DNA of 64,000 nt from Escherichia coli O157 typing phage 13, in sequence record KP869111; one strand, given 5' to 3'. Every line of letters starts with the position of its first letter. Positions within the stretch are counted from its first letter, which is position 1. A program made the position numbers and the translations under genes. Below are positions 22,334-61,017 of the stretch, in pieces. A model generated the notes under the pieces. It was not told the DNA's origin, ran no database searches, and was given only the letters and a program-made list of their open reading frames with translations.

Positions 22334-22451
22334 NNNNNNNNNNNNNNNNNNNNNNNNNNNNNNNNNNNNNNNNNNNNNNNNNNNNNNNNNNNNNNNNNNN
22401 NNNNNNNNNNNNNNNNNNNNNNNNNNNNNNNNNNNNNNNNNNNNNNNNNNN
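22334..22451. other. Run of 118 N (assembly gap or mask)
   Basis: Unresolved bases; minus-strand reading frame stays open across the join. Confidence 0.99.
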
Positions 22452-38493: not shown

Positions 38494-38533
38494 TTGATAG
38501 GACTACTATAACATAGCCCTATCTTGTTATAAA
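38494..38533 (-). promoter_or_regulatory. T4-type early promoter, near-identical to plus-strand copy at 43158
   Basis: Minus strand GTTTATaacaagaTAGGGCTAtgtTATAGTAGTCCTAtcaaa. Confidence 0.5.
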
Positions 38534-42320: not shown

Positions 42321-42966
42321 ATGGCCGACATCAAACGTAAGTTCAGAGCCGAAGACGGTCTGGACGCCGGTGGCGACAAGATTGTTAACGTAGCATTAGC
42401 CGACCGTACAGTAGGTACTGATGGCGTAAACGTTGACTTCCTGGTACAAGAAAACACCGTTCAAGTATATGATTCTACGCGTGGATATAACAAAGGATTT
42501 GTTGTTCTTTATGACAACCGTTTATATCAAGCAATAAATGATATCGTGTCTCCTTCCGGGGCATTTAACCTTTTACAATGGCGTGCAGTTCGTACCGATG
42601 CACAATGGATAACTGTCGCTTCTGGGACTTATCAACTTTCTTCAGGTGAATCTATTTCGGTTAACACTGGTGCCGGCAATGATATGGTTTTCACGTTGCC
42701 AAATACGCCGGTTGATGGTGATACTGTTGTTTTGGCTGATATTGGTGGAAGAACCGGGACAGTTAAAGTACAGATTAACGCGTCTGTGCAGAGTATTTTA
42801 AACTTTAGAGGTGAACAAGTTCGTACAGTTTTAATGACGCGCCCACGTTCACAACTATTGTTTGTGTTTAGTAATCGTTTGTGGCAGATGTATATTACCG
42901 ATTATGGTAAAGAATCAATCACTGTTACACCTGCGACACCATATCAAGCACAAGCAAATGATTTTA
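42321..42966 (+). CDS. 34: Long tail fiber proximal subunit gp34, N-terminal 215 codons only (runs into N-run)
   Basis: MADIKRKFRAEDGLDAGGDKIVNVALADRTVGTDGVNVDFLVQENTVQ... matches the T4 gp34 N-terminus; frame is not continued after the N-run. Confidence 0.85.
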
Positions 42967-43066
42967 NNNNNNNNNNNNNNNNNNNNNNNNNNNNNNNNNN
43001 NNNNNNNNNNNNNNNNNNNNNNNNNNNNNNNNNNNNNNNNNNNNNNNNNNNNNNNNNNNNNNNNNN
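42967..43066. other. Run of 100 N at the junction between the two syntenic blocks
   Basis: Unresolved bases; sequence after it belongs to a different gene and to the opposite T4 orientation. Confidence 0.99.
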
Positions 43067-43125
43067 GCTACTATTGTTATCTCTCCGGCTGAAGAGACCG
43101 CACTGTTTAAAGCTAAGCATATTTC
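43067..43125 (+). CDS. 3' end of an unidentified CDS (possibly the upstream topoisomerase-subunit gene)
   Basis: Open frame from the N-run ending ...ATIVISPAEETALFKAKHISVAQLKIIAKTLL; T4 synteny would put gene 60 here; not verified. Confidence 0.35.
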
Positions 43126-43157
43126 TGTAGCTCAGCTTAAAATTATTGCAAAAACTC

Positions 43158-43187
43158 TTCTGTAAGTAGTTTACATCTTGATAGGGC
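43158..43187 (+). promoter_or_regulatory. T4-type early promoter (palindromic subfamily)
   Basis: GTTTACatcttgaTAGGGCTAtgtTATAGTAGTCCTAtcaaaac. Confidence 0.5.
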
Positions 43188-43226
43188 TATGTTATAGTAG
43201 TCCTATCAAAACAAATAGAGTCCACA

Positions 43227-43466
43227 ATGATTTATTACGAAAGTATCGGAACCAAAGTGGTTGGTAAAACCATTACTCGTGAAAAGTTTGCAAAGATATT
43301 CGATATGCGTTATAAAAAATCTGAACACAAAGGCATCCGATTCGAAGATGCGCACTGTACAATTTGCCCTTATAATGAAGACATAAACGGTACAATCGTT
43401 CCATTGGTAGAGGCTTCACATGATGACCTCTGGGATGAATATAATATCGCATGTCGTGAAATTTAA
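43227..43466 (+). CDS. Hypothetical 79-aa protein
   Basis: ORF downstream of an early promoter. Confidence 0.55.
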   Translation: MIYYESIGTKVVGKTITREKFAKIFDMRYKKSEHKGIRFEDAHCTICPYNEDINGTIVPLVEASHDDLWDEYNIACREI

Positions 43467-43494
43467 GTTAATGAATTAATCCGAGGAAAATATT

Positions 43495-44486
43495 ATGATG
43501 TTAGTTATTGGTTCTCGTGCACTTCACTATCACGGTCTTATTGATTCTAGCGCTATTAAAAATAGTGATTGGGACTTTATTGCGGACCAAGGTTCTTGGA
43601 ATGCATTCAAAAATCAAATGATGGGTGTATATGTTCACCAAGATAACCCTGATGTCCAAGTTTTCAAATGCTTCCATAATGGACGCGAAACTCATTTTGA
43701 AGCATATATTGTTCCGGCAATCACTAATGTCCGTGAATTAGTCGGTGAACTCACTCCTGAAGATTTCACGTCTTCTTATGACCTTTTAAAATACGCCAAG
43801 AAAAATTTGACTAAAGACCGTTTGAACGGGTTTTACTGGGCAACTCCTGAGATATGTCTTGCAATTAAGATGTCTCATCGTTTCAAGAAAAATAATCCAT
43901 TCTTTTTAAAGACTATGAACCATATTCAGTATCTTCGTGGTAAAGGTGTTACACTTAACGATGAACTTACTGAAATTATGCTGAAACGNNNNNNNNNNNN
44001 NNNNNNNNNNNNNNNNNNNNNNNNNNNNNNNNNNNNNNNNNNNNNNNNNNNNNNNNNNNNNNNNNNNNNNNNNNNNNNNNNNNNNNNNNNNNNNNNNNNN
44101 NNNNNNNNNNNNNNNNNNNNNNNNNNNNNNNNNNNNNNNNNNNNNNNNNNNNNNNNNNNNNNNNNNNNNNNNNNNNNNNNNNNNNNNNNNNNNNNNNNNN
44201 GAAGTTTGAATCACTTCCGGAAATGGTCAAATTGGCCGGTGTATATGAAGAAACATGTGTACTAGCGTTAGAACGTTCTCAGATTCCTAATGGCTTTGAA
44301 ATCCATCCTCGTGATAGTTTTATGATGGCATTAGAAAAGGTCTGTACTTCAATCACATCAGGCTGGTTCCGTGAGTATGCCTGGGAGAACTATGGCAAAG
44401 TAGTAAGTATGTATCAAAGCTTAGGACACGACGATTACGTCAAGCGTTTCAAACAAAATTTTCATATGGTAAAACCTTTCAAATAA
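43495..44486 (+). CDS. Hypothetical protein of about 259 aa, interrupted by an N-run (43989-44200)
   Basis: SD GAGGAAAAT before ATG; 5' and 3' parts are in frame if the N-run has zero real length. Confidence 0.5.
43989..44200. other. Run of 212 N
   Basis: Unresolved bases inside a CDS; flanks join in frame when the N are removed. Confidence 0.99.
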
Positions 44487-44498
44487 TTTCACCAAACT

Positions 44499-44528
44499 GT
44501 TTACAAGGTCTGTAGTTGTTGATACTAT
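44499..44528 (+). promoter_or_regulatory. T4-type early promoter
   Basis: GTTTACaAGGTCTgtagttgttgaTACTATAGACCTatcaaaac with inverted-repeat arms. Confidence 0.5.
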
Positions 44529-44565
44529 AGACCTATCAAAACAAATGAGTGAATGGAGATACAAA

Positions 44566-44766
44566 ATGACTACTTTGAATAAACGTTTCGGTAAAGCTAA
44601 ACCTGGCTGTGCAGCAGAACGTCGTTACATTTTCGCTCAGTTAGAAGATGTAGAGTATCAGATTAATCAAGTTCACATTACTGGCATCGAGCCTATGTGT
44701 GGCCTTGAAGCTCTTCGTGAAGTTCGTGACGGGTATCGTCGTGATATCGAAGAAATGTCAAAATAA
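44566..44766 (+). CDS. Hypothetical 66-aa protein
   Basis: Start chosen at the ATG preceded by SD GGAGA (MTTLNKRFGK...). Confidence 0.5.
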   Translation: MTTLNKRFGKAKPGCAAERRYIFAQLEDVEYQINQVHITGIEPMCGLEALREVRDGYRRDIEEMSK

Positions 44767-44796
44767 GTGTACAAACTGATAGGACTATGTTATAGT
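44767..44796 (+). promoter_or_regulatory. T4-type early promoter (palindromic subfamily, -35 GTGTAC)
   Basis: GTGTACaaactgaTAGGACTAtgtTATAGTAGTCCTAttaaaac. Confidence 0.45.
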
Positions 44797-44824
44797 AGTC
44801 CTATTAAAACATGAGGAGAATATT

Positions 44825-44924
44825 ATGAAATTAGGCGAAACCAACCGAATTGGTCTTTTAACAATATTTGTATCACTTTTTTACGCAGCTCTTTCTGTTG
44901 CAGTATTACAAAAGGCTTACAGTA
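44825..44924 (+). CDS. 5' end of a CDS with a hydrophobic N-terminus, running into an N-run
   Basis: SD GAGGAG; MKLGETNRIGLLTIFVSLFYAALSVAVLQKAYS; in frame with the rIIA body if the N-run is zero-length. Confidence 0.35.
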
Positions 44925-45024
44925 NNNNNNNNNNNNNNNNNNNNNNNNNNNNNNNNNNNNNNNNNNNNNNNNNNNNNNNNNNNNNNNNNNNNNNNNNNNN
45001 NNNNNNNNNNNNNNNNNNNNNNNN
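44925..45024. other. Run of 100 N
   Basis: Unresolved bases at the 5' boundary of the rIIA homology. Confidence 0.99.
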
Positions 45025-46554
45025 GAACGTGGTAATATCATGGCTGTTTATGGCGGTATTGTATATCCAATCGGAAGTGTTATTAAAGAACAAACATGGA
45101 TGATGACGCGATGCACTACAGCTTATATTAAATTCCCTATGGGTGAACTAGATGTAGCCCCGTCTCGTGAAGCATTGTCATTTGATAAACGTACAGTAGC
45201 AAATATCCATAAACGCGTTGCAGAAATCGATGCTAAATTGTTTGCTGAAGATTCTAAGAAATGGATTGATTGTAAATACCCACGTCATGTGTTCCGTGAA
45301 ATTGATTCTCTTGGCTATACCGCTCGTAAATACATGGAAAAGGCCGGGTCTAATATTGAATCACTGAAATACTCTAAAGAACAACTAACTTATTCTGAGT
45401 TGTACAAACGTTTTAAAATGGGGCCTGAGTGGTGTAATCTTGGCGTCGTATACGATATCGTTGAATCCCCTCGTCTTCGTCGTATTCGTGAAAGTGGTAG
45501 CTCATCATCAACCATTTCAATTAACAGCCTGATTGGCATTAACATTAAAAACGTTGAAATTGTTATTGACGACGTTAAGGGACGCGTTCCATTAATGCGA
45601 GCTCTTAATTCAATTGAAATGTCTAAAGACGAGGTTAAATTAACTGGTAAAGTTCCACGTGGTTTTGGTAAAAGCGTACTATTCGTTGACCCTACAGACG
45701 AAGATGCAATGAAACTTCTGGAACGCCTTAAAGTTATCTTTGATGGCGACAACATTAACATGTACAAGACTTCAGAGCTTTTACAAATCGTTAAGCCATG
45801 GATTGAAGTCAGGAAACGAACTAATGAGCCTCGTCCTAAATCCCCAAGTGCTCATCGGTTCTTTAAGAATGAAAATGATGTTTGGGTATCAGAAGATCTC
45901 TTTATTCCGGCAAGTGAAGCAGATGAAATCCAAGGTTATGCTATAGTTCGTAATCGTTCTAATGCTGAATGTCTTGACGCAGATAAAGGTTGGTTGAATT
46001 ATGATTCTAATTTCTTGACTCGTATTGCCGATTTGTCAGGTATTAAAGAGTTCACTGTAGTTCGCCCACAGATTGCTAAGAAAGTTCGTAAACTTGGTGA
46101 AGTAGAATGCTTGTTCGAAAAATCAATTAATGACTATATTACGCTAATTGATAAAGTGGATTATGATGAGTATGTATCACCAAGTCGTAGAGCACAGCCT
46201 TATTTGAATCATATTACTCGTAATGAAGAGCTTAACTTCCTTAGTAAGTATTTTAGCTCTAAGAACAAAGAAATCAGTAAAGATTTTGCAAAACTTTCAA
46301 CAGTAAATAATCGTTGGGGATGGAATCGATTCGCAGGTGCTGATAACAGAGACCTGAACAGGAAGTTAGAATTGTGTGCTAAAATTTTCGATAAGCTTAA
46401 AGATAATGCTTACGATTATGATGATAAAATGGTTATTGAATTTGAAACCAATTATCATATTGTGTCAGAATACATGGGACGACGTGGTACTCTTTCCAAA
46501 GAACAGGTCACTCAAATCGTTAAATTCATGAAGGCTGTGGAAGCAGCCAAATAA
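45025..46554 (+). CDS. rIIA: rIIA protein, C-terminal about 510 aa (N-terminal about 245 aa of the T4-length protein not present)
   Basis: ...AVYGGIVYPIGSVI...YIKFPMGELDVAPSREALSFDKRT... aligns to T4 rIIA from about residue 245 to the end; followed by rIIB. Confidence 0.85.
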   Translation, partial: ERGNIMAVYGGIVYPIGSVIKEQTWMMTRCTTAYIKFPMGELDVAPSREALSFDKRTVANIHKRVAEIDAKLFAEDSKKWIDCKYPRHVFREIDSLGYTARKYMEKAGSNIESLKYSKEQLTYSELYKRFKMGPEWCNLGVVYDIVESPRLRRIRESGSSSSTISINSLIGINIKNVEIVIDDVKGRVPLMRALNSIEMSKDEVKLTGKVPRGFGKSVLFVDPTDEDAMKLLERLKVIFDGDNINMYKTSELLQIVKPWIEVRKRTNEPRPKSPSAHRFFKNENDVWVSEDLFIPASEADEIQGYAIVRNRSNAECLDADKGWLNYDSNFLTRIADLSGIKEFTVVRPQIAKKVRKLGEVECLFEKSINDYITLIDKVDYDEYVSPSRRAQPYLNHITRNEELNFLSKYFSSKNKEISKDFAKLSTVNNRWGWNRFAGADNRDLNRKLELCAKIFDKLKDNAYDYDDKMVIEFETNYHIVSEYMGRRGTLSKEQVTQIVKFMKAVEAAK

Positions 46555-46563
46555 GGAAACATT

Positions 46564-47511
46564 ATGTACAATATCAAATGCTTGTCCCAAGAAGAACAGT
46601 TAGAAGCTTACGGCCTGGTTGAATCAGGCAAATGGACTCGTAAAGAAATTGCCGATTACTTCGACATTTCAACAGATACTCTTCGTAAGATTGTTAAGAA
46701 TTTTAAAGCAGAAGGCGTTGTCCCTGAAGCAAACGATGCCTCTTATGTAATCGAAGAAGTTCCAGAAAATGATGAACCTATTATCGGCGGACATCGTCCT
46801 GAAATCGTATGGAACGCGTCATCTAAATTTATTTCAATTATTGAAGGACGCGTAGCATACAATGCGACCCCATCAAGTCATGCAAATTTTGAAGAAATTA
46901 AAGCTAATCTGGTCGCAGGAAACCTTAGTAAAGCTGTCGAACTTATTAACATCAAGAAAGCTATTACTAAGTTTGTTGATGGTAATGTTACTATTGAAGG
47001 TGGTAGTTTATTTTATCAAGGTATAGAGATTCGTTCAGGGCTGGTTAACCGTATTATTGATTCCATGGAAAAAGGTGAAGACTTTAAATTCTATCTGCCA
47101 TTCCTTGAAAACCTGTTAGAAAACCCAAGCGAAAAAGCTGTACAACGTTTATTCGACTTCTTGGTTGCAAACGATATTGAAATCACTGAAGATGGGTATT
47201 TCTATGCATGGAAAGTAGTTCGTAAGGACTATTTAGACTGCTATAGTGGTACATTTGATAACTCCCCAGGTAAAGTTGTTTCAATGCCTCGTACTCGAGT
47301 TAACGACGATGATACTCAAACCTGTTCTCGCGGTCTCCACGTTTGTGCTAAATCTTATATTCGCCACTTTGGTTCAAGCTCAGATAAAGTTGTGAAGGTT
47401 AAAGTTCATCCACGTGATGTTGTATCCATCCCAGTTGACTATGGTGATGCTAAGATGCGTACTTGTCGTTATGAAGTAATTTCAGACGTTACTGAATTAT
47501 TTGCAGAATAA
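46564..47511 (+). CDS. rIIB: rIIB protein
   Basis: 315 aa versus 312 in T4; MYNIKCL... N-terminus and highly conserved C-terminal half. Confidence 0.93.
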   Translation: MYNIKCLSQEEQLEAYGLVESGKWTRKEIADYFDISTDTLRKIVKNFKAEGVVPEANDASYVIEEVPENDEPIIGGHRPEIVWNASSKFISIIEGRVAYNATPSSHANFEEIKANLVAGNLSKAVELINIKKAITKFVDGNVTIEGGSLFYQGIEIRSGLVNRIIDSMEKGEDFKFYLPFLENLLENPSEKAVQRLFDFLVANDIEITEDGYFYAWKVVRKDYLDCYSGTFDNSPGKVVSMPRTRVNDDDTQTCSRGLHVCAKSYIRHFGSSSDKVVKVKVHPRDVVSIPVDYGDAKMRTCRYEVISDVTELFAE

Positions 47512-47514
47512 TAA

Positions 47515-47540
47515 TTGGGGACTTCGGTCCCCTTTTTTTT
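47515..47540 (+). terminator. Rho-independent terminator after rIIB
   Basis: GGGGAC-UUCG-GUCCCC followed by T8. Confidence 0.65.
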
Positions 47541-47554
47541 CTTTAGGGGTAATT

Positions 47555-47842
47555 ATGATTCATCCATTTGACGTATCAGAATCCAAAATTGCTAATCTTC
47601 GTGGTCATCATAAGTGTAAATCAGTTTATTGTGCTAAATTGGTAAAACATCCTGGCGATGCACACTATGGCTGGTTAGAATGTGACGAAGTTGTTATTGA
47701 AATCCCACCGGTAGATGCAGAATATCTTGAAGAAGGTGACCGCATTTATTTTGGCGAACTACACATTAGAGGTATCTATGGTAAAGACGAACTTGGGACT
47801 GTTGAGGCTGAAGAGTCTTCCGACATTTATCCTGTCGAATGA
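47555..47842 (+). CDS. Hypothetical 95-aa protein
   Basis: Start at ATG with SD-like GGGGTAATT; Cys/His-containing. Confidence 0.5.
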   Translation: MIHPFDVSESKIANLRGHHKCKSVYCAKLVKHPGDAHYGWLECDEVVIEIPPVDAEYLEEGDRIYFGELHIRGIYGKDELGTVEAEESSDIYPVE

Positions 47843-47858
47843 GTTTTTGACTAGCGAA

Positions 47859-48335
47859 ATGAAGGTTAAGATCGCTGATACTGCTCGGTACTCGTTGAAA
47901 CAAGATCCAGGTCAAATAAAAGAAGACGTTGTTCGACGTTGTAAGGTTGCAGTCTTTGCAGAGTATGTAGTAGCAAATTGGCTAGACGGATATGTTAATA
48001 AAGGTAATGAAGACGTAGAAGACCCGTACACGTATGCATGGGACGTTTTAGCTCATCCTAAGTACTGTGGTCTACGCGTAGAAGTAAAGACCCATCAGAT
48101 GGATTCGAAATGGATTTCGGTTACCACAGGATACGGTGGTGATTATCCAGGTGGCAACGGAATCAACATAGGGCCCTTCTTGAACCATCGAGTCGCAGAT
48201 TGCATTATTATATTAGATGTCAAAGAAACCTCACCTGACGTCTTCTCTTATTCTATAAAGTTCGTGGGAGACCATGAAGACCTAAAGAAAATCGTCCGCA
48301 AGAGCAACTACAACGGGTGGTATCTTCATCTTTAA
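47859..48335 (+). CDS. denB: Putative endonuclease IV (DenB-like)
   Basis: 158 aa from the in-frame ATG; sits where T4 has denB after rIIB; the identification rests on position. Confidence 0.55.
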   Translation: MKVKIADTARYSLKQDPGQIKEDVVRRCKVAVFAEYVVANWLDGYVNKGNEDVEDPYTYAWDVLAHPKYCGLRVEVKTHQMDSKWISVTTGYGGDYPGGNGINIGPFLNHRVADCIIILDVKETSPDVFSYSIKFVGDHEDLKKIVRKSNYNGWYLHL

Positions 48336-48346
48336 TTTCATAAAAG

Positions 48347-48377
48347 TGTTTACAACTAAGTAGGACTATGATATAGT
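48347..48377 (+). promoter_or_regulatory. T4-type early promoter (palindromic subfamily)
   Basis: GTTTACaactaagTAGGACTAtgaTATAGTAGTCCTAtctaaa. Confidence 0.5.
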
Positions 48378-48403
48378 AGTCCTATCTAAAAGAGGATAAC
48401 ATC

Positions 48404-48667
48404 ATGAAATTTAAATTTTTCTACGCAAAACATAAAGTAACAGGCGAATTTGTTTCAATGTACAACACTGCAGATGACGAAGGGATGATTTATACCCATT
48501 TGGGTCTATCTCATTGGGACTCAGACGTGCCTTATATGTCATCTGAAGCCGAAATAACTCGTTTAGTTAATGGACATATGAACGACCATTTTAGTGTTAT
48601 CCTTTCTAAAGACCTTAAAGAGGTTATCAACAAAGGATATATGGAACTCGCGGAAGTTGAGATATGA
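48404..48667 (+). CDS. Hypothetical 87-aa protein
   Basis: ORF with SD GAGGA downstream of an early promoter. Confidence 0.5.
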   Translation: MKFKFFYAKHKVTGEFVSMYNTADDEGMIYTHLGLSHWDSDVPYMSSEAEITRLVNGHMNDHFSVILSKDLKEVINKGYMELAEVEI

Positions 48668-48859
48668 GCTCTAAAATGTGGATCGGAATATGGTTGCTTA
48701 GTATCCCAATGATTTGTATAATATTTTCAATTGTGTTGAGGTACTTATGAAAAATGCACTTCTTATTGTACTAAGATCAATTTGTGATACGGGTTTTTAC
48801 ATTGCATGTTCGTTCACTGGAACATGGTTGGCTTTAACATATTTTAATGTAATTTAATT

Positions 48860-48889
48860 GTTTACAACAAGGTAGGATTATGGTATAGT
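48860..48889 (+). promoter_or_regulatory. T4-type early promoter (palindromic subfamily)
   Basis: GTTTACaacaaggTAGGATTAtggTATAGTAGTCCTActgaaac. Confidence 0.5.
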
Positions 48890-48917
48890 AGTCCTACTGA
48901 AACATGAGGAACACAAA

Positions 48918-49118
48918 ATGGCTAAGCTTTTTAAAGATGTTGAAATTGGTGAAAAATTTGTTCTGAATAATGGTCAGCAGCTTATTCGTGTAGCTTCTAT
49001 CGCCGGACAAACTCATAACTGTATCGCCCCAACGTGTTGGACTCGATTTTTTATTGAAGATGACACTGAATGTTTAACTGTTGAAGAGCTTTTTGAACGT
49101 TCTGATATGACCGAATAA
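48918..49118 (+). CDS. Hypothetical 66-aa protein
   Basis: ORF with SD GAGGAA downstream of an early promoter. Confidence 0.5.
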   Translation: MAKLFKDVEIGEKFVLNNGQQLIRVASIAGQTHNCIAPTCWTRFFIEDDTECLTVEELFERSDMTE

Positions 49119-49194
49119 AATTGTACAAACTCTTGAGAGCAGAGTATAATGCTCTCATGGATTACAAAAACATTAATCAATTGAGGAAATTAGC

Positions 49195-49641
49195 ATGTCC
49201 AAATATTTAACTCGTAAAGACCTTCTGGCAGTTGGCGGTGAAGTTGTTGCAGTAGTTCGTAATGGCGAATACGGTTCTGAAGTTTCTAAAGAGTTTCGTT
49301 CTCGTGAAGGTTTTTACTTCTTTGTTAAAGGTTCATCTGATTGGCGACAAGTAGCAGCACGATTCTTTGTAGGACGTCAACGTTCTAAACAAGGGTTGGA
49401 TGCAATTCTTTCTCACATTCGTCAAGGCCGTTCGCAACTAGCCCGTACCATGGGCACTAATAATATTGAATATGATGTAATCTTTGTTGCAGCTAAGAAC
49501 ATGAAACCACTGACCACCGGTTATGGTAAAGGTCAATTGGCTCTGGCATTCACTCGCAACCATACATCAGAATATCAAACACTCACTGAAATGAACCGTC
49601 TTCTGGCTGATAATTTCAAATTCATTCTGCAGAGTTACTAA
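49195..49641 (+). CDS. ndd: Nucleoid disruption protein Ndd
   Basis: 148 aa versus 151 in T4; central region ...QRSKQG...LSHIRQ...RSQLART... and C-terminus KPLTTG...[13 protein letters not shown]...SEYQTL...EMNR...LADNFKF... match T4 Ndd. Confidence 0.88.
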
Positions 49642-49694
49642 TTTATACAGGCCCTATTAAGTTAGGCCTTTAATTTATTTTTGAGGTAATTAAA

Positions 49695-49841
49695 ATGGTA
49701 GCATGGATTATTGCATTGCTGTGTTGGTCGTTTTTATTCGTTAACACTTTAGTTACAGGCGAAACAACAGTATTTCAACAGGCCGTATCACAAGGTACCT
49801 TAGCGGTCTTAGCTCTTATTAACGTGTTAAAAGGCGAGTAA
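49695..49841 (+). CDS. Hypothetical 48-aa membrane peptide (below ORF-track cutoff)
   Basis: SD GAGG; single predicted TM helix; stop overlaps the next start (TAATG). Confidence 0.4.
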   Translation: MVAWIIALLCWSFLFVNTLVTGETTVFQQAVSQGTLAVLALINVLKGE

Positions 49842-49981
49842 TGATTAAGAAAATCTTAGCAGGAGCCTTCGGGCTCTTGTTGTTGCTTACGGTTCTGTAC
49901 TACGGTGTGATGTTTGGACTAATCCAAGTAGTGCTTTTCATTTCAGATGTTATAATGGATATTCGTTCATTAATATGGTGA
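49841..49981 (+). CDS. Hypothetical 46-aa membrane peptide (below ORF-track cutoff)
   Basis: Leu-rich hydrophobic core; translationally coupled; T4 has small membrane genes (ac, ndd.x) here. Confidence 0.4.
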   Translation: MIKKILAGAFGLLLLLTVLYYGVMFGLIQVVLFISDVIMDIRSLIW

Positions 49982-49985
49982 AAAT

Positions 49986-51394
49986 ATGCAATTGAATTCT
50001 CGTAATCTAAAAAGTATTATTGATAACGAAGCCTTAGCATATGCGATGTACACCGTTGAAAACCGTGCAATCCCAAACATGATTGATGGATTTAAGCCGG
50101 TTCAACGTTTTGTGGTCCATCGTGCGTTAGATTTGGCTCGTGGTAATAAAGAAAAATTTCATAAACTTGCGTCAATTGCAGGCGGTGTTGCAGATTTAGG
50201 TTATCACCATGGTGAATCTTCTGCACAAGATGCAGGTGCATTGATGGCTAACACATGGAACAACAACTATCCACTGTTAGATGGCCAAGGCAACTTTGGT
50301 TCTAGAACAGTCCANNNNNNNNNNNNNNNNNNNNNNNNNNNNNNNNNNNNNNNNNNNNNNNNNNNNNNNNNNNNNNNNNNNNNNNNNNNNNNNNNNNNAA
50401 AGCTGCAGCATCTCGTTATATTTTTGCTCGTGTAAGTAAAAATTTCTATAACGTATATAAAGATACTGAATATGCTCCAGCTCATGAAGATAAAGAACAC
50501 GTTCCACCAAAATTCTATCTTCCTATTATTCCGACAGTTCTTTTGAATGGTGTATCTGGTATTGCAACCGGTTACGCAACAAATATTCTGCCTCATAGTT
50601 TTAAATCGGTAAAAAAGGCTGTATTACAAGCTCTTCAAGGTAAAAATGTCACTAAGCCAAAAGTTGAATTCCCGGAATTCCATGGTGAAGTACATGAAGT
50701 TGATGGGCGTTATGAGATTCACGGAACATATAAGTTCACATCTCGCACTCAAATGCAGATAACTGAAATCCCATATAAATTCGACCGTGAAACGTATGTG
50801 AGTAAGGTTCTTGACCCGTTGGAAGACAAAGGTCTAATCTCATGGGAAGATGATTGTGGTGAACACGGCTTTGGGTTTAAGGTGAAGTTCCGTAAAGAGT
50901 ACTCGCTTCCTGATGATGAAGAGCTACGTCATGAAAAAATCATGAAAGATTTTAGTCTCATCGAACGTCGTTCACAAAACATCACAGTGATTAATGAAAA
51001 GGGTAAATTAGCAGTCTACGATAACGTAGTGGACTTAATCAAAGATTTTGTTGAAGTCCGTAAGACTTACGTTCAGAAACGTATTGACAACAAAATCCTT
51101 GAATCTGAAAAAGCATTTAAACTGGCTTTTGCTAAGGCACACTTCATCAAAAAAGTTATCAACGGTGAAATCGTGATTCAGGGCAAGACTCGTAAAGCTT
51201 TGACTGAAGAGCTAGCACAAATCGAAATGTATAAAGAACATGTCGATAAACTGGTAGGTCTTAACATCTTCCATATCACTTCCGATGAAGCACGTAAACT
51301 AGCAGAAGAAGCTAAAGCTAAGAAAGAAGAAAATGAGTATTGGAAGTCTACTGATGTTGTGACAGAGTACACTAAAGACTTGGAGGCACTTTGA
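49986..51394 (+). CDS. 52: DNA topoisomerase II medium subunit gp52, interrupted by an N-run (50315-50398)
   Basis: Both halves recognised as T4 gp52 (GyrA-like); halves sum to about 441 aa versus 442 in T4, so the 84 N stand for only about 1 nt. Confidence 0.9.
50315..50398. other. Run of 84 N inside gene 52
   Basis: Flanking codons are off by one frame, consistent with about 1 missing base rather than 84. Confidence 0.99.
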
Positions 51395-51465
51395 GTGCTA
51401 TAGCCTTAGGATTTCTCGGTGCAATAGCTGTACTAGTGATTTGGCTGTATTGGTTGGACAAACAT

Positions 51466-51490
51466 GATTAGGGAGCTTCGGCTCCCTTTT
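51466..51490 (+). terminator. Rho-independent terminator after gene 52
   Basis: GGGAGC-UUCG-GCUCCC followed by UUUUG. Confidence 0.55.
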
Positions 51491-51512
51491 GTGCATTTTT
51501 CTCACAAAACAG

Positions 51513-51540
51513 TTTACATGCGCTTCAATCATGATATTAT
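51513..51540 (+). promoter_or_regulatory. T4-type early promoter upstream of motA
   Basis: GTTTACatgcgcttcaatcatgaTATTATagacctatcaaaac (17-nt spacer). Confidence 0.5.
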
Positions 51541-51579
51541 AGACCTATCAAAACAAAACAACCAAATTGGAGAAATAAA

Positions 51580-52212
51580 ATGTCTAAAGTTACTTACATC
51601 ATCAAAGCTTCTGAAAACGCTCTGAATGAAAAAACTGCTGCAATAATGGTTTATATCATTAAGAACAACTTCACCACTGCTGCCAATGTCCGTGAAGCTC
51701 TGGAAGCAGAATACAATGCATCAGTTGTTAACTCTAACATTGGTGTATTGATTAAGAAAGGTTTAGTCGAAAAATCTGGTGATGGACTTGTGGCAACCGG
51801 CGAAGCAATGGATATTATCCAAAAAGCTGCAGACCTATTTGCTCAAGAAAATGCTCCAGAACTTCTTCAGAAACGTAACACCAGAAAAGCACGTGGAGTT
51901 ACTCCTGAAATGCATGAATTAGCAAACTTTGTTTTTGAAAATATTAAAGATAAAGTTGAAGTTAAAGAAATTGGTGAAAACCGTAGTAACTTAGAAGTTC
52001 GATTTGCAAAACGAGTTCTAGGCATTCGCCAAATTGAAATTCGACGAGATGGCGCTCTTAGAATCTTTGCATACAACATGTCAGAAACTGAATCAAAGCT
52101 GTTTACTTCTCTTGAAAATGATGTTAAGATTAAGATCGGTGGTAAATATACTTACATTGACTTCCCTAATGTGTCCAAAGAAATCATTACCCTTGTAACT
52201 AACGTACTGTGA
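51580..52212 (+). CDS. motA: MotA middle-transcription activator
   Basis: 210 aa versus 211 in T4; MSKVTYIIKAS... and VVNSNIGVLIKKGLVEKSGDGL match T4 MotA. Confidence 0.92.
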   Translation: MSKVTYIIKASENALNEKTAAIMVYIIKNNFTTAANVREALEAEYNASVVNSNIGVLIKKGLVEKSGDGLVATGEAMDIIQKAADLFAQENAPELLQKRNTRKARGVTPEMHELANFVFENIKDKVEVKEIGENRSNLEVRFAKRVLGIRQIEIRRDGALRIFAYNMSETESKLFTSLENDVKIKIGGKYTYIDFPNVSKEIITLVTNVL

Positions 52213-52222
52213 GGAATACGTA

Positions 52223-52552
52223 ATGAATAAGCTGAATATTATTAACGAACTTCGTAAATGTGCAGAACCTACTCAGGAAGGATGGGATATTTGGTACCAC
52301 GGTGCTTATTTAGGGACAATTGTAAAGATTAAAGCAGGCCAATATACGGTTATTCGTGAAAATAATGACGCGCCATTTGGTCTTCGTAAAAACTACATGG
52401 CAGCGATCAGTTCGTTTGTTGATGCAGCTTACGAAATCTATAAAGAAGATTATAAAGAGTATCAGCAGTCACAACCGGTTATTCGTTCGATTGGTGTAAA
52501 TAAACAAGCACAAAAATCTATTTGGCAACGTATTAAGGAATGGTTTAAATGA
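52223..52552 (+). CDS. Hypothetical 109-aa protein
   Basis: ORF with SD GAGGAA in the motA-asiA interval. Confidence 0.5.
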
Positions 52553-53010
52553 AATCATTTAAAGAACGTTTAGAGCTATTAGATTTGGCCTTGTCTCGTG
52601 AGACTCCTGAAAGTCTAGCAGAAAAATTCCAGTCCTACGGTTATAATTATTCTGCTGATGATATAATGAATGAAGTTCCTGAAATCTGTTGGCAAACGTG
52701 CTATTGGAACAATGACCAAAAAGTTCAACGTGTTATAGTATGTGCAGCTAATAGGTTTAAATTGAAGAGCGGTGGAACTCTGGTTATTCCTGGAGTTCGT
52801 CATTACTCTAAAGATATGGCTGAAGTACTTGATATAGTTGGTCCTCAATTAGTCTCGCAACAAGTTTGTGGCGATGACCAAGGCTTTATCGACCAATACT
52901 CTAATTACTGGACTCGTGAAGAAGCAATGATTATTGCAACATATGCTGGACAGGTACGTATTGAACGTGGCGGAAGTGAGAAAGAACTTTATTCAGAGGA
53001 CCTTTATTAA
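52549..53010 (+). CDS. Hypothetical 153-aa protein
   Basis: ORF with ATGA overlap to the upstream gene; no motif recognised. Confidence 0.55.
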
Positions 53011-53291
53011 TGAATATTAAACAACTCCAGAAAGATGCTATTGAATCACGTATCCAAGATATCAAACGTCTTAATCATATGATGGAAGAAAACTATGGTA
53101 TGTATGCTAATCAGCCTGGTTGGGATGCTTTAGACCATCCTTATTTGGTTAATTTATGTAAAGGTGATACGTTAGCAATTATTCGTGATGGGTTAAAACC
53201 TTTCTTGCGTGACATGTATATTAAAATGAACGAAGAAATTATTAGCTCGTTGCAATATCAATTAAGGAAATTAGATGATGAGAATAATTGA
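53010..53291 (+). CDS. Hypothetical 93-aa protein
   Basis: ORF translationally coupled (TAATG) to the upstream gene. Confidence 0.5.
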   Translation: MNIKQLQKDAIESRIQDIKRLNHMMEENYGMYANQPGWDALDHPYLVNLCKGDTLAIIRDGLKPFLRDMYIKMNEEIISSLQYQLRKLDDENN

Positions 53292-53493
53292 TTCTAAAGC
53301 GGATTATTTTAATTCTGTTAATGATAAGAATAAAGCTTTAATTCGCCACTTTATTACTGAGATGGGATATACCGACTCTAAAGATTTGAAAGAGCACATT
53401 ATCGAATGTTCTGTGGCTAAAAAGTTTTCTTTCACAGACAAATGTTTAAACGAGGTTATAAATCATTATGAACAATCTTGTAGCAAAACATGA
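53275..53493 (+). CDS. Hypothetical 72-aa protein
   Basis: ORF overlapping the upstream stop; could correspond to an Arn-like small protein but not verified. Confidence 0.45.
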   Translation: MMRIIDSKADYFNSVNDKNKALIRHFITEMGYTDSKDLKEHIIECSVAKKFSFTDKCLNEVINHYEQSCSKT

Positions 53494-53576
53494 TTTCAAT
53501 AAGGCTTCTGTCCATAAGGACAAGAAGAAATCAGAACTTCAATCTAAACGCAAACAAAAACATAAGGGTAAAGACT

Positions 53577-53876
53577 ATGCTTACTAAAATCAAAGAAAAT
53601 CCTGCCACTGAACTTGTTATTCGATGTGAAGAACTTGCAGAGCTTTATCAGGTTAACCGAGAAGTGTGTCGTAGTGTTATCGTAGATATGGCAGACGAAG
53701 TATGTTCTCGTATTCCTTTTAGTGTCGATTTCAATCACATGAAGCCTGGTGAAATCACTATCGTCTTTGGTTCTGACTATACTGAAGAACGGGCTCTTAA
53801 TGTCCTAGAATATGAAATGTCATTCTTCGACATACAGGACTACATTGATAGTTATAAGGAACAATATGAGTCATAA
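53577..53876 (+). CDS. Hypothetical 99-aa acidic protein
   Basis: Start trimmed to the ATG with SD AAGGGTAAAG (MLTKIKENP...). Confidence 0.45.
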   Translation: MLTKIKENPATELVIRCEELAELYQVNREVCRSVIVDMADEVCSRIPFSVDFNHMKPGEITIVFGSDYTEERALNVLEYEMSFFDIQDYIDSYKEQYES

Positions 53877-54027
53877 TCTTCAGAACGTAGTAGAGGCCGA
53901 ACGTGAGCGTGAGGCTTTAGTCTATAATGAACTATTAGTTCCATTCTTGGCCTTACACTCGTATGAACAGGAAGACTACATTGATTACGTTAAAAGCGTA
54001 GAAAAAGCCGTTTACAATCAACACTGA
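53866..54027 (+). CDS. Hypothetical 53-aa protein
   Basis: Start trimmed to the ATG with SD AAGGAA (MSHNLQNVVEAE...); overlaps the upstream stop. Confidence 0.4.
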   Translation: MSHNLQNVVEAEREREALVYNELLVPFLALHSYEQEDYIDYVKSVEKAVYNQH

Positions 54028-54073
54028 TAATGGTACTATATCCATATCAACTAAGTGGAATGAATAAAACGTT

Positions 54074-54346
54074 ATGAATAAAGACATTGAAATCGTACGT
54101 GAAATTATTACTATTGCTTCTATTTTGATTAAATTCTCTAGGGAAGATATTGTTGAAGACCGAGCAAGTTTCATCGGATTCTTGAATGAGATTGGAATTA
54201 AAAAAGATGGTCGGCAGCTAAATCAGAATTCGTTCAGAAAACTAATTACAAATTTAACTGCCGAAGAAAAGAAAACACTGATTAGTGAATTCAATGAAGG
54301 TTTTGAAAATATTTATCGTCATTTAGCGATGTATTCTAACAACTAA
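54074..54346 (+). CDS. asiA: Anti-sigma-70 factor AsiA
   Basis: 90 aa as in T4; MNKDIEIVREIITIASILIKFSREDIVE... near-identical to T4 AsiA as recalled. Confidence 0.93.
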   Translation: MNKDIEIVREIITIASILIKFSREDIVEDRASFIGFLNEIGIKKDGRQLNQNSFRKLITNLTAEEKKTLISEFNEGFENIYRHLAMYSNN

Positions 54347-55006
54347 TTATTTAGCCCTTCCTAGTATTCGGATCGCTTGGTTGCATATAGCCGCTAAGCG
54401 ATCTTCCTCAAGTATATTACTCCCCTTATACCAATACATCGTCACAGTTCCAGCATAGATGTTATCCAAATTAAAGTATGGACAACTATACATATAAGAA
54501 AGTTCGGCAGTCTTAGATTTTGTAGGCAAAAATGCAAATTCTGATTTAGATGAGAAATGACGGCCACTTAAATGAATTATATATTCATTGGCCGTTTTAT
54601 CCACTGGGAATCCGCCAAGGGACTTTTCAGAAATTGTGCTAGGTAGTTTGCCTTCATAAGCTATAAGGTCGACAAAATAATTTAAGTTTTTAGGTCTGAA
54701 AGAATACACAGCACTAAAATCTGCACCAGATGAGATATGAACTATTTGCAGTTGTTCTAGAGCCGCAGATTCAAAACGTAAAGCTCGTTCTTTTTGGATT
54801 ATTTCAGTATAAGTATCATACTTAGCTCTTACATAATAATCCAGCAAAATACTTCCTTTGTACCATATTAGTGCCATTAGGAACAAAAGAATAATTACCG
54901 CTACTCGGGACATTAAAACCTTTCCAGTAGCGTTATCTTTGAAAATACGATCTAGCAACCCAAATAGAATATCACTAGGCGAAAATGATACTTTTGGTGT
55001 TGCCAT
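54347..55006 (-). CDS. t: Holin T
   Basis: 219 aa versus 218 in T4; FSPSDILFG...DNATGKV and the periplasmic domain match T4 holin; convergent with asiA. Confidence 0.93.
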   Translation of the reverse strand: MATPKVSFSPSDILFGLLDRIFKDNATGKVLMSRVAVIILLFLMALIWYKGSILLDYYVRAKYDTYTEIIQKERALRFESAALEQLQIVHISSGADFSAVYSFRPKNLNYFVDLIAYEGKLPSTISEKSLGGFPVDKTANEYIIHLSGRHFSSKSEFAFLPTKSKTAELSYMYSCPYFNLDNIYAGTVTMYWYKGSNILEEDRLAAICNQAIRILGRAK

Positions 55007-55015
55007 AATACCTCC

Positions 55016-55567
55016 TTACTTAAAGATATTTATAATCGCTTTGATAATAGATTTGTTTTCAAGGTCAGGGAATTTAGGGAATTCGCCGCCAAGATGTTCA
55101 TGTTTTTCTAAAAGGGCAAAGAATTTTTTGAGCTCTTTAAATTTTCGTTTTTCTTCTCTACTAGCAACCTCTGCGTCAATAAGAGAACTTAAAACACTGA
55201 ATAATTTATAGAGTTCATGAATTTTCTTATCACGTTGAACTACGCGTTTATATGCTTCATCTTCCTTCCACCCGTCGTCGGTCCAAATGTCAAATTCACC
55301 GGGTTCTTCTGTAGTAACATTTTGAAGAGCACCTGGAGTGTCAATAACAATTTTTTGCTTATCATAAGTCCATACCGTTTTTCCACGATGGTCTTCAACA
55401 TATACCCATTCTTGCTCGCGTTCGTCAAATATAACAGCATAGCCTTCTTTAGGGTCTAAAGGTTTTTTTGGTGTCGAATGAGCCGGAAATCCTACGCCTT
55501 TTAATGGTTTATAATTTTCTTCTTTGTAAAATTCTTTAGTGTCAAAATAATAGTGATAGAGTTTCAT
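55016..55567 (-). CDS. 38: gp38 tail-fiber assembly chaperone (T4 type)
   Basis: Start set to MKLYHYYFDTKEFYKEENYKP... (T4-like N-terminus); the ORF-track start 18 nt upstream lies inside a hairpin. Confidence 0.85.
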   Translation of the reverse strand: MKLYHYYFDTKEFYKEENYKPLKGVGFPAHSTPKKPLDPKEGYAVIFDEREQEWVYVEDHRGKTVWTYDKQKIVIDTPGALQNVTTEEPGEFDIWTDDGWKEDEAYKRVVQRDKKIHELYKLFSVLSSLIDAEVASREEKRKFKELKKFFALLEKHEHLGGEFPKFPDLENKSIIKAIINIFK

Positions 55568-55598
55568 ATTATAAAAAAGGGACATAAGTCCCTTCTCC

Positions 55599-58500
55599 TT
55601 ATGCTAAACGAACGATATAGTTAAAAGCAACGTTTTTAACTGTGTTTTCTGTATTTCCTGTGGCATTTACAGTTATTGTATGTCCATGGGAACCAATTGC
55701 AACAGTATGAGAATGAGCACCAATACCTACCGAATGGGTATGAGCACCAATACCCACAGTATGAGCATGGTTACCTGTGGTACTTGTGGTTCCTGACCAA
55801 GAGTGTGTATGGTTACCTTCTGAAGAAGTTTTGGCTATATTCGACCCTGCAGTAGCACCGTTCACGGTTCCAGTGAATTTAGCGTTGGCGTTTGCACCTA
55901 CACTATTATATCCGTCATAGAATATGTTATTGGGTATGCCAGCTTGTATCTGAGGACCTGAGCGCGCATGTTGGTGGTTACCTGCAGCACTTGTAGTTCC
56001 ACNNNNNNNNNNNNNNNNNNNNNNNNNNNNNNNNNNNNNNNNNNNNNNNNNNNNNNNNNNNNNNNNNNNNNNNNNNNNNNNNNNNNNNNNNNNNNNNNNN
56101 NNNNNNNNNNNNNNNNNNNNNACCGTATGGTTATGGTTACCTGTGGTATTACTGGTTTTAGTACCATAATCAAAGCTTGAAGATGTTTTAGTACCATAAT
56201 CAAAGCTTGATGTGGTTTTAGTACCTAAATCAGTATTAGATGCTGAAGCACTATGGTTATGAGACTTAATACCATCAGCTTCTGTACTTAATACATCACG
56301 CCCAGATGGTTTACCTTTAATCGTCTGACCACGCATATCGGGCAGAGTGCCGGAAGGATACACCGCAGCTAACTTAGGATACAAGCCAGTATCAAATGTT
56401 TGACCTTCCATTATGGCATAACCTTCAGGAGGTGTATCAGTAGGCCAAGGAATCGGAGCACCAATAGGATAACTTGAGACAATATCTGTCTTAAGGTTAT
56501 TTATTGTGGTATTCAAGTTAGCAAAATTACCAGAACCGCCGGTGATATTACCATCAGTACCAATACGAACATTACCAGCGCCTAATTTACCAGGAGAGTA
56601 NNNNNNNNNNNNNNNNNNNNNNNNNNNNNNNNNNNNNNNNNNNNNNNNNNNNNNNNNNNNNNNNNNNNNNNNNNNNNNNNNNNNNNNATCACCGTTTTTA
56701 TTAAATTCCCAACCTAAATCCTTTATAATTGCGCCAGTAGAAACGCCGTCACCACCTTCGTGATAGTGAACTCTAAAGTTACCACCATTAATTAAAGTAC
56801 CAATAGAATAGCAACTATTATTTTGAACGTATCTTTGTTTCACAATAGGAACATAAGTGCTTGTATCTGTTCTATCAATATTCATATAGAACGGAGCACG
56901 AACGTTTTCATTATTCTGAGAAGCAAAAGAACCGGCTCCAGCAGGTCGTGCAGTATCAGTACATTCAGCGTCGATATATGCCGATTGTCCTAATTGCATA
57001 CGGTAATTAGGAGAAATGCGACTATGACTAGTTATAACAACAAGTTTATTATCATTATCAACGGTCACCATATTACCGCCAGCACCATCATCACCTAACG
57101 TAACAGAATGGCGCATTTGAACCATACCGTTGTTAAGAGAAACACTCAATGGGCGAAGGTTAGAAATACCACCATTTTCACCTGCATCTTTAAGTGTAGG
57201 TATAATATGCAAAGACGCTTCAGAACGACGGAAAATAGCTCCATATTCAGCATTGTAAATACGGAAAGCATCTGCGGTATTGCCGATTTTAACTTGACCG
57301 GTAATAGAACCACCGCCGGATAAAACAAGCCCGTTATCCATAGTAACTTGTCCGGATAATGTACTTAATCCATTAACTCTAAGACTTCCATCGGTGATAA
57401 TGCTCCCTCTTGCATTCAGTTGTCCATTAATTTGTGTTACAACAGGTCCCACAGTTTCTGAACCGGTTGGAGCTACGCGCTGAGAATAAAAATAATATCC
57501 CTGGCCGTCAGCTACTTCAAAAACTGTTTCACGATTACGATCGCCAGATGCGTTAAATGAATTACCCCATGCTTTAACAGTTACATAGCTTTTATTCTGA
57601 CCAGCACGAGTACCGCCTTCCCACAAAATTTGCTTAGTGCCATCAATTGTAGTAGTTGGAGCGAATGTTAGCCCAGCAGTAGAATTATTAGCTGCTAAAT
57701 ATATGCCGTTATATATTGAAAGCTGCTTAACAGATGTAATACCGCCATCAGCATAAAACATTACATTATTAGAGCCAGTTACTAGTTTAAGAATACCCGG
57801 GTTAATTTCCATACCTTGTTGGGTATTGATATTCATCTGACCTGTACCACGGAAATAGTGGTTCATTTTACCACCAGCATTGTACCCGATATGGGTTTGT
57901 CCGTCTCCAGCATTGTTATTATCAGCTTGTGTTTGAACAGACAAGAGAGCAGCATTTGTACCAGGCATAATCCATGTGGTGCCTTGGTCCTCGGAACGAC
58001 CAAATATACCTTTACGAGTACTACGGAAACTGTCAGGAGTAATAGAAGCAACAGAATTCCAATTACCTACTAAATCATAAACACCCTGCTTAATGTATTT
58101 TAAACCAGTGGCAGCATCACCCAAAGCAATATATCTTTCTCCCATTGGAGTAGGAGAGCCGTAGTTATTGGTATTTTCATCAGTGGTAATTGTGCCAATA
58201 GCAAGTGAACGACGTAATACCATTGCGCCATCATTACGAAGACCCATTAATTTAGTAGTAAGTGTATTTCCGGTCCACCAAGAAATTTCATCATTCTTAC
58301 CAGTTTGAGCTGAAGCGATTTCATGGTAAATAGTTCCACCTGATTTAGCTCGAACTTTACGAAGATAGTTTATACCATTTTCTTCACCTGTTCCAGGATA
58401 AACATATTGAACTAATGACTGTGAATCATATTGTCCGAATGCTTTTGTGTCTAAAACAATGGTTTTCGTATTAACTTGTGGAGCAGAAACTATACCATTA

Positions 58501-59081
58501 GCGGAGTTAATATTGCCTGACGCAGAAATATTACCTGCGCGGACCTCAATACTACCAGAATCTACAATAAAATTACCATTACGGTTAAAGACCCAGTGTT
58601 TAGAATTGTCTGGAGCTGTAGAATCAATATAATGAACTCTAAATGAGCCTTCGCTTACTAATGTACCTACTGAAAAAGTACCGTCTTTATAACGTTGCTT
58701 AATCAAAGGGTGGTATTCAGAAGTTGAAGTAGTTGAACTCAAATCTGTAAAGATAGGGGCTTTATTTGTGTGTTGGTTAGCCCAAGCGCCATTTCCAGCA
58801 GTTTTTGGCAAGAATTCAATATACTTTCCTGCATAAACAAACTGGTTTCCATTAAGATTATACGTGCCGTTTTGTAAATAATCACCATTTTGAGTTACAT
58901 TACCGTTAATATCCCCGCCCTTAGCAAAGCCTAGGCTAATAATATTACCGAGGTCATCTTTAGTAAAAAGAGTTCGATCTTTTAAGTTTATCGCTAATTC
59001 GCCTTCGGCTAATTGTGCTGCAGTAGGATTAACTCCTGCTACTTTGCTTCTTTTAAATTGTATCTGTTTTAATGTAGCCAT
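55599..59081 (-). CDS. 37: Long tail fiber distal subunit gp37 (two N-runs inside)
   Basis: Large ORF between genes 36 and 38; C-terminal tip rich in G-x-H-x-H motifs as in the T4 gp37 needle domain. Confidence 0.9.
56003..56121. other. Run of 119 N inside gene 37
   Basis: Unresolved bases; reading frame maintained across it. Confidence 0.99.
56155..56244 (-). repeat. 30-bp tandem repeat (about 2.5-3 copies) inside gene 37
   Basis: gttttagtaccataatcaaagcttga(a/t)g(a/t)t repeated at 56155, 56185, 56215; encodes repeated DYGTKT(S/T)SSF decapeptide near the receptor-binding tip. Confidence 0.8.
56601..56687. other. Run of 87 N inside gene 37
   Basis: Unresolved bases; length is a multiple of 3 and frame is maintained. 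Confidence 0.99.
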
Positions 59082-59089
59082 AAGTCCTC

Positions 59090-59755
59090 TTAATAATAGC
59101 CGAAATCTTGAACAGAATCTTTAATTACAATCTGGTCGAAACGAGGAACATGATTAGCCTCAGACGCCGGATTCTGTGAGAAAAAGTTTGGTGCTGTTAA
59201 AGTACCAGTCATGGTATCGCCTTTACGCAATACACGGGAATTTGCGTTATCCGTAACAATATTTATTCGTCCATCAACATAATCTTTTCTAGTAAGGTCA
59301 TTCGCTGCTATAGGAGCAGCCGCATCACTTCTTACTTGACCAGCTGCCGACACAACGCCTTTTGTATTAATATCACCATTACGTGTATTAATTACTACAG
59401 TTCTACCCGCTGTTCCTTGTGATGATTTAAAACCAATACCATACCACGAAACAATATCAATATTTGCTGTAACAAAAGTAGCTGCATCTCCATTACCAGG
59501 ATAAATACCAGATTGATTTGTATTGTTTATAGCATATGGTATTTGAACACCGCCGTTAAATGTTACCTTTGATGCATAAGTACCACCATTTGCTTTAGAA
59601 ACGAAATCATTATCAGCAGCTTGTGGCTTATTATATTCTGAATAGAGTTTAAACGTTTTATACAGGACGTCATCACCTGCTGGCATTAAAGGGAAATTAC
59701 CTTGATGCCATATAACGGCACCGCCAGTTGTACTACCAGCTTTTAAATCGGCCAT
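59090..59755 (-). CDS. 36: Long tail fiber distal connector gp36
   Basis: 221 aa as in T4; position between genes 35 and 37. Confidence 0.92.
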
Positions 59756-59779
59756 AGTTGTCTCCTTATATGTATACCA

Positions 59780-59787
59780 TATTTATA
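59780..59787 (-). promoter_or_regulatory. Late promoter TATAAATA upstream of gene 36
   Basis: Exact TATAAATA on the minus strand about 25 nt before the gp36 ATG. Confidence 0.55.
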
Positions 59788-59794
59788 CAAAAAT

Positions 59795-59816
59795 GGGAGA
59801 CCGAAGTCTCCCTAAA
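59795..59816 (-). terminator. Rho-independent terminator after gene 35
   Basis: GGGAGAC-UUCG-GUCUCCC followed by AUUUUUG on the minus strand. Confidence 0.55.
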
Positions 59817-59817
59817 T

Positions 59818-61009
59818 TTATTCTGGTGCTTCTTTAAATTCTTGACCAAATACCTTACCAGTATCAGTTGAAGATTGAGTAGGTAATGTCATTATGTCTG
59901 GAGCACTTAAAGATTCTGAAACATAATTTACACGAATACCATTCGTACCAAACTCAGCAGGTTTTGAAACGCTTCCATTACATGATACTTCAGTGAATAT
60001 AACGTTTCTTAATCCACCTTGCCCGACTGGAGCTGTACGATAACAATAAATCGTGAACCCGTCAGCACCAGCAGGAATTTCTACGTAGTCTTCATATATC
60101 TTCCATTCACCTGCAGCCCCATCAAAGTTTATATCCTTAAATGAAATAGGTGAAGTAGAAGGAGATTTAAAGAAACGAATAGAAAGTCGTGTCGTCCCTT
60201 GTGCTAACAAATCGGCATCGGCCATTAGTTGGAATTTCATATAAAGGAAATCTCCAGGCTTCAATTTATACCCAGCGAGAGGTGTAATAACAGATGCTGT
60301 AGGCATCCTTTTAATTTCGTTATTAGTACCTCCAATGGCAGATAAAAATGTGTCTGACGATTCATACGTACGTCTAGGGAAGCCGGTAGCACCAATATCA
60401 TCGATCGTGTCGTACACAACATCAAGTGGTGTACTATAGTCGGTTGAAGTTTTCTTATTACTATACTTAATATGTTCTAGTGCTATAGCATTCTTACCAG
60501 AAATATAAAATGCAGAATAAGAAATGTCCACTATATTTAAAACTTGTTGAGCTAATGGAATAGCAGAACTCCCAGCTTTAGTAAACCATGCAAGAACTTC
60601 TGGTGGAAAGTTTGTTTTAGCGTTAGTAACAAGAGCAAATATAAAATTTGAAGCATATGTGTCCATGAAAGTAACAAATGCACTTGACGTGGCGTCGTTT
60701 TCAGTAGAGAAATTATATGTCTTAGATTCAACTACTGCACCTGTTGTAGGATTTATTACACGAACGTTTAATCCAACGGAAAAAACCTGGGACCCAAGTG
60801 GATTATCCTGGAACTTAATATAAGCAGGAGATGTTGATNNNNNNNNNNNNNNNNNNNNNNNNNNNNNNNNNNNNNNNNNNNNNNNNNNNNNNNNNNNNNN
60901 NNNNNGGGCAAGAGCCCGCTATGCTTAATTTAAATCGTACTGAATTGCTTTCCGATAAAAATGGCGTTTGGACGTATCCTTGTCCAAACTTAGCCATAAA
61001 TTTTTCCAT
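59818..61009 (-). CDS. 35: Long tail fiber hinge protein gp35 (N-run inside)
   Basis: MEKFMA...LSESNSVRFK... start and position between 34 and 36; the two parts join in frame if the 67-N run is removed (about 374 aa versus 372 in T4). Confidence 0.85.
60839..60905. other. Run of 67 N inside gene 35
   Basis: Unresolved bases; zero-length join restores the frame. Confidence 0.99.
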
Positions 61010-61017
61010 AATACCTC

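Follow-up and report, generated by a model that had tools for sequence, protein, structure and literature searches.

An rIIA fragment behind a hydrophobic leader in a typing-phage genome very probably reflects a contig join

Does the phage whose DNA was analyzed here (a stretch of 64,000 nucleotides, hereafter the window) encode an rIIA protein that has exchanged its N-terminal ATPase-like domain for a hydrophobic leader, or is this arrangement a product of the assembly? The question arises at positions 44925-45024, where exactly 100 N, according to a count of the N-runs across the window, separate a hydrophobic 33-codon start from a sequence homologous to T4 rIIA. The first-pass annotation had offered two readings of this locus, namely a truncated rIIA with a membrane-anchor-like N-terminus, or a chimeric join at which about 0.6 kb is missing. 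From comparison with near-identical genomes, we are almost certain that the join is a scaffold artefact, i.e. an arbitrary concatenation of draft contigs that harbors no real short rIIA feature. The features on which this assessment is based are listed in Table 1.

Table 1. Features of the rIIA locus, N-runs of the window, and position of the window blocks in the TP3 genome.
Feature	Window coordinates	Strand or orientation	Basis or correspondence
Promoter-like site TGTACA-17 nt-TATAGT (44768-44796)	44768-44803	+	sigma-70-like, promoter scan
SD GAGGAG (44813-44818) and first 100 nt of a 101-aa gene, cut by the contig end	44813-44924	+	identity to TP3 83687-83786
Gap of unspecified size, very probably between contigs non-adjacent in the genome (TP3 83786 / 149951)	44925-45024	.	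mapping onto TP3
rIIA, 3' two-thirds, codons 229-737 and stop	45025-46554	+	100 % identity to TP3 from 149951 on; T4 rIIA alignment; phrog_612
rIIB, intact, 315 aa	46564-47511	+	colinear with TP3 'RIIB lysis inhibitor', 948 nt
Second 100-N run, arbitrary contig join	42967-43066	.	TP3 383 minus joined to 75027 plus
N-run, 118 N	22334-22451		66 real bases in TP3
N-run, 212 N	43989-44200		177 real bases in TP3
N-run, 84 N	50315-50398		1 real base in TP3
N-run, 119 N	56003-56121		2 real bases in TP3
N-run, 87 N	56601-56687		3 real bases in TP3
N-run, 67 N	60839-60905		3 real bases in TP3
Block	1-22333	minus	TP3 43295-20964
Block	22452-42966	minus	TP3 20897-383
Block	43067-43988	plus	TP3 75027-75174, then 82065-82885
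Block	44201-44924	plus	TP3 83063-83786, 100 %
Block	45025-50314	plus	TP3 149951-155240, 100 %
Four blocks	50399-64000	plus	TP3, colinear to 168578
PeSL-like repeat copies	43179-43213, 44777-44811, 48361-48385, 48873-48910	+
PeSL-like repeat copy	38497-38523	-

The first base after the N-run, 45025 (GAACGTGG...), opens codon 229 of the Mosigvirus rIIA. It corresponds to nt 685 of the gene (offset 684 nt, frame 0), and the translation starts with ERGNIMAVYGGIVYPI. The rIIA homology does extend from the edge of the N-run to the C-terminus, as initially described, but it begins at residue 231 of T4 rIIA by alignment, not at about residue 245. More specifically, the fragment aligns to T4 residues 231-725, the latter being the C-terminus (38 % identity, E = 2e-113), and matches only positions 228-724 of the 725 positions of phrog_612. 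The window thus holds the C-terminal 69 % of a T4-type rIIA gene, with rIIB directly downstream, which is its usual position and also that found in T4. The 504-aa ORF at 45040-46554 is rIIA read from the internal Met234, and no record of its exact product was found.

Bases 45025-47600 are 100.0 % identical to two E. coli O157 typing phages, phage 3 (TP3; KP869101 / NC_041863, Mosigvirus) and phage 6 (TP6, likewise Mosigvirus), and for the window in general the identity to both is about 100 %. In these two N-free records rIIA codes for 737 aa, and the gene is annotated as 2214 nt in TP3, TP6, and p000v. The TP3 protein (YP_009592963.1, 737 aa, compared to 725 aa for T4 rIIA, NP_049616.1) matches phrog_612 over its full length (1-724), and the window fragment falls short of full-length rIIA homology (about 725-740 aa). 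Since the fragment is short, yet the identical TP3 protein is full-length, the shortfall is a property of the assembly and not of the gene. The N-terminal 228 codons are lacking in the window as a result of the starting point of the contig and not of a truncation of the gene, and the abrupt edge of the rIIA homology is a contig end devoid of biological meaning. The 684 nt (228 codons) absent here directly adjoin GAACGTGG on its upstream side in TP3/TP6, in frame and contiguous, and the same is observed in p000v. At the breakpoint of the window, TP3 is uninterrupted, with GCTCCATGGGGT on the left side immediately followed by GAACGTGGTAATATC on the right side. A truncated rIIA would leave no place at this position for some 600 bp coding for the N-terminal part of rIIA; such sequence is found there in TP3/TP6, which are 100 % identical to the window, rather than having been seen in this isolate itself.

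Residues 1-228 of TP3 rIIA contain ELITNCIDG, DFGPGM, and GGFGLGSK (within residues 45-125), which we take to be Bergerat-fold/GHKL ATPase-like motifs (N-box E..N..D, DxGxG, and GxxGxG, respectively). These motifs bear out the earlier proposal that the missing part of rIIA is the ATPase-like domain, and they are absent from the window (no significant match in a tblastn search with TP3 residues 1-228). In a PDB sequence search, residues 17-55 weakly matched the N-terminal ATPase domain of endoplasmin (GRP94; E ~0.004). A match of the N-terminal 228 aa to a designed TIM barrel, also from a PDB sequence search, was discarded as spurious, and Pfam scans of full-length rIIA and of the rIIA fragment gave nothing meaningful. 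Judging from these sequence comparisons, the real phage would have an ordinary 737-aa rIIA with GHKL-type ATPase-like motifs in residues 1-228, and the ATPase-like domain would be retained in the phage, only the assembly lacking it.

The region upstream of rIIA comprises, in TP3, TP6, and p000v, a 201-nt rIIA.1-like ORF, a 1101-nt ORF, and the gene of the topoisomerase large subunit; the order rIIA.1-rIIA is present in T4 too. From the neighborhood formed by gp39 topoisomerase, rIIA.1, rIIA, and rIIB, the window shows the downstream rIIB, and TP3 146001-149266 is unmatched in the window. The absent 5' sequence of rIIA presumably lies elsewhere in the source record or was left unassembled.

On the left side of the N-run, the promoter, SD, and 33-codon hydrophobic start reported in the first-pass annotation were all found (TGTACA-17-TATAGT, GAGGAG, and ATG 44825). 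The 33 codons opened by this ATG, MKLGETNRIGLLTIFVSLFYAALSVAVLQKAYS, are most hydrophobic at residues 10-28 (Kyte-Doolittle 2.27). Positions 44825-44924 are identical to nt 1-100 of TP3 FDG79_gp255 (83687-83992; YP_009592835.1). This gene, located downstream of the tRNA genes in the hyperplastic region, codes for a hypothetical protein (phrog_9798). The gp255 protein is 101 aa long (MKLGETNRIG...AYSMDGVPGFVFLSPFLLFVGALLLYATTSF...ECRGK), has two predicted TM segments that correspond to peaks of hydropathy (residues 10-28 and 37-55), and matches phrog_9798 at positions 1-101 of 101 (E = 8.8e-68). A Pfam scan of gp255 gave nothing meaningful, with only a sub-threshold match to PcfK. The window shares with the TP3 gene codons 1-33, the promoter-like site, and the SD, and differs from it in the last 68 codons, which fall beyond the end of the contig. 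Both the promoter-like site and the SD are predicted signals of the gp255-type gene itself and not of rIIA. The -10 hexamer is enclosed by an 8-bp stem-loop (TAGGACTA at 44780-44787 and TAGTCCTA at 44796-44803), and the site is among the copies of a dispersed PeSL-like repeat. Within the window, we found no trace of the 5' 684 nt of rIIA, of its 3.3-kb upstream neighbors, or of the 3' end of gp255.

Every N-delimited block of the window was mapped onto the whole N-free TP3 genome (Table 1). Of the eight N-runs, the two with exactly 100 N break the colinearity with TP3, and the remaining six, which differ in length, preserve it. The flanks of the run at 44925-45024, each 100 % identical to TP3, are separated by 66,164 bp in that genome (83786 vs 149951). 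The suggestion of a chimeric join with about 0.6 kb missing is therefore only partly retained: the join is in all likelihood chimeric and the missing piece of rIIA amounts to 684 nt, but the two contigs are 66,164 bp apart. A megablast search with 44200-47600 against 50,697 phage records matched 268 of them, and in none do the two flanks of the gap occur together at a single locus. A search of viral contigs for the junction, with the gap set at 100 bases, found no match, and the 49-mer to the left of the gap matched neither viral contigs nor genome contigs. No repeat common to the breakpoints TP3 83786 and 149951 was found, and the sequence gives no reason for an assembler to break there. By NCBI convention, a run of 100 N denotes a gap of unknown length.

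The second run of exactly 100 N shares these features, as the flanks of both runs map apart in a complete, near-identical genome. This run (42967-43066) cuts gp34, the gene of the long-tail-fibre proximal subunit, after codon 215. Positions 1-214 of phrog_972 are found at 42321-42965 (+) and positions 299-1246 at 61018-63999 (-), the remainder of gp34 lying on the opposite strand (61018-64000). A gp34 split onto opposite strands is incompatible with a viable phage. Since this run joins opposite orientations and splits gp34, 100 N marks concatenation, not adjacency. The lengths of the N-runs differ from the real gap sizes, which makes them unusable for frame or distance arguments in this window. 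Indeed, the 84-N and 67-N runs taken at face value would frameshift a topoisomerase gene and a tail-fibre gene (net 83 and 64 nt, respectively). ORFs listed across N-runs, e.g. 43495-44265 and 42321-43130, are mechanical artefacts.

We propose that the window is part of a multi-contig draft of a Mosigvirus essentially identical to TP3/TP6. Contigs or scaffolds would have been strung together without regard to order or orientation, each join being marked by the conventional 100-N spacer. The left contig would end 100 nt into the gp255-type small membrane-protein gene and the right contig would begin at rIIA codon 229. In the real phage, the gp255-type gene and rIIA would be unrelated, complete, and ~66 kb apart, and the fusion protein would not be encoded. 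The run at 44925-45024 resembles the scaffold gaps of draft assemblies in its exactly 100 N, its non-colinear flanks, and the second such case in the same window; no difference from such gaps was observed, which makes it an ordinary case. The variable N-runs of the window, colinear yet wrongly sized, resemble the estimated-length N-runs of Velvet scaffolds, and a Velvet-type draft is the probable source of the window. For the typing phages, de novo assembly with Velvet gave 1-7 contigs per phage, and typing-phage group 2 consists of TP3, TP6, TP7, and TP13 (PMC4429339). Typing phage 7 (KP869105) is a Tequatrovirus. Fusions, truncations, gene orders, and any other features read across the N-runs of the window are unsafe, above all at the runs of exactly 100. 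In particular, the call of a 504-aa "truncated rIIA" by automatic annotation could put a false domain-loss variant into databases.

Besides concatenation, the gp255 region might have come to lie beside rIIA through a genuine rearrangement or a large deletion, in the isolate or in a defective sub-population, the N-run hiding a short stretch. We consider this very unlikely. Deletions in rII are classical in T4, T4-type phages possess dispersed PeSL-like repeats through which deletions can arise, and the window itself contains one such jump (TP3 75174 to 82065) within a contiguous block. Nevertheless, the breakpoints TP3 83786 and 149951 are in coding sequence and share no homology, and a repeat-mediated deletion at 44925-45024 was rejected because neither breakpoint lies in a PeSL-like repeat or is homologous to the other. 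In addition, a deletion of 66 kb would deprive the phage of replication genes and of the late sigma factor, given that TP3 83787-149950 holds the DNA polymerase, the clamp, the clamp loader, the primase, the helicase, recombination nucleases, and the late sigma factor. A real absence of these genes would be lethal. The other 100-N run, with its opposite orientations and its split gp34, also speaks against a real rearrangement, such a genome not being viable. Even less probable, in our opinion, is a stock holding a real recombinant or defective genome in which a gp255-type start is joined to rIIA codon 229 through a junction left unclosed by the assembler; this would represent an rII-type deletion or rearrangement yielding an ATPase-less, possibly membrane-tethered rIIA.

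We give hardly any credence to a phage that encodes rIIA residues 229-737 fused to the 33-residue hydrophobic leader, which would be an rIIA anchored in the membrane and lacking the ATPase-like domain. Such a reading is favored by the hydrophobic 33-codon start located, with an SD and a promoter-like site, just left of the fragment on the same strand, but this leader opens a distinct 101-aa gene that is conserved, and the flanks, 66 kb apart in identical genomes, are adjacent in none of the 268 relatives. The start had been described as in frame with rIIA if the N-run had zero length. The real bases at 44825-44924 number 100, corresponding to 33 codons plus 1 base, and with a zero-length gap the ORF reads ...AYS-R-T-W-stop, ending after three codons. 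A gap of 100 N leads to the third frame (NVVISWLF...), the frames joining only at a gap length of 2 mod 3. There is consequently no continuous ORF at a gap length of 0 or 100, and the bases between the flanks are N, so the fusion junction was never observed. With frames that differ, a leader that is gp255, and flanks 66 kb apart, the anchored, ATPase-less rIIA of the first-pass annotation is refuted. It is just as hard to believe that the N-run masks exactly 100 real bases, rather than a gap of unspecified size: stretches are masked as N in some collections, but other N-runs of the window put 67-119 N for 1-3 TP3 bases inside essential genes, and the flanks would, even then, still belong to genes 66 kb apart.

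The dispersed repeat mentioned above (35-50 nt, TGATAGGrCTATGTTATAGTAGTCCTAT) occurs in five copies in the window and in at least nine in TP3. It includes a promoter-like -10 hexamer, TATAGT, within an 8-bp stem-loop and is located just upstream of small early-type genes. It is similar to the promoter-early stem-loop (PeSL) cassettes known from T4-type phages (PMC2839356, PMC4122927). In the N-free block 43067-43988, the jump from TP3 75174 to 82065 is situated exactly inside a PeSL-like repeat (window ~43168-43214) and drops ~6.9 kb of TP3, comprising tRNA-Met, tRNA-Arg, and about ten small ORFs. None of the phage records in the collection contiguously covers this 75174/82065 junction, and the jump reflects either a genuine deletion mediated by PeSL or a collapse at the repeat during assembly. 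Finally, the TP3 record itself has a 144-bp terminal overlap (1-144 vs 168444-168587), because of which the TP3 gp34 annotation (165596-168427) is cut by the linearisation point, with 1-1131 unannotated.
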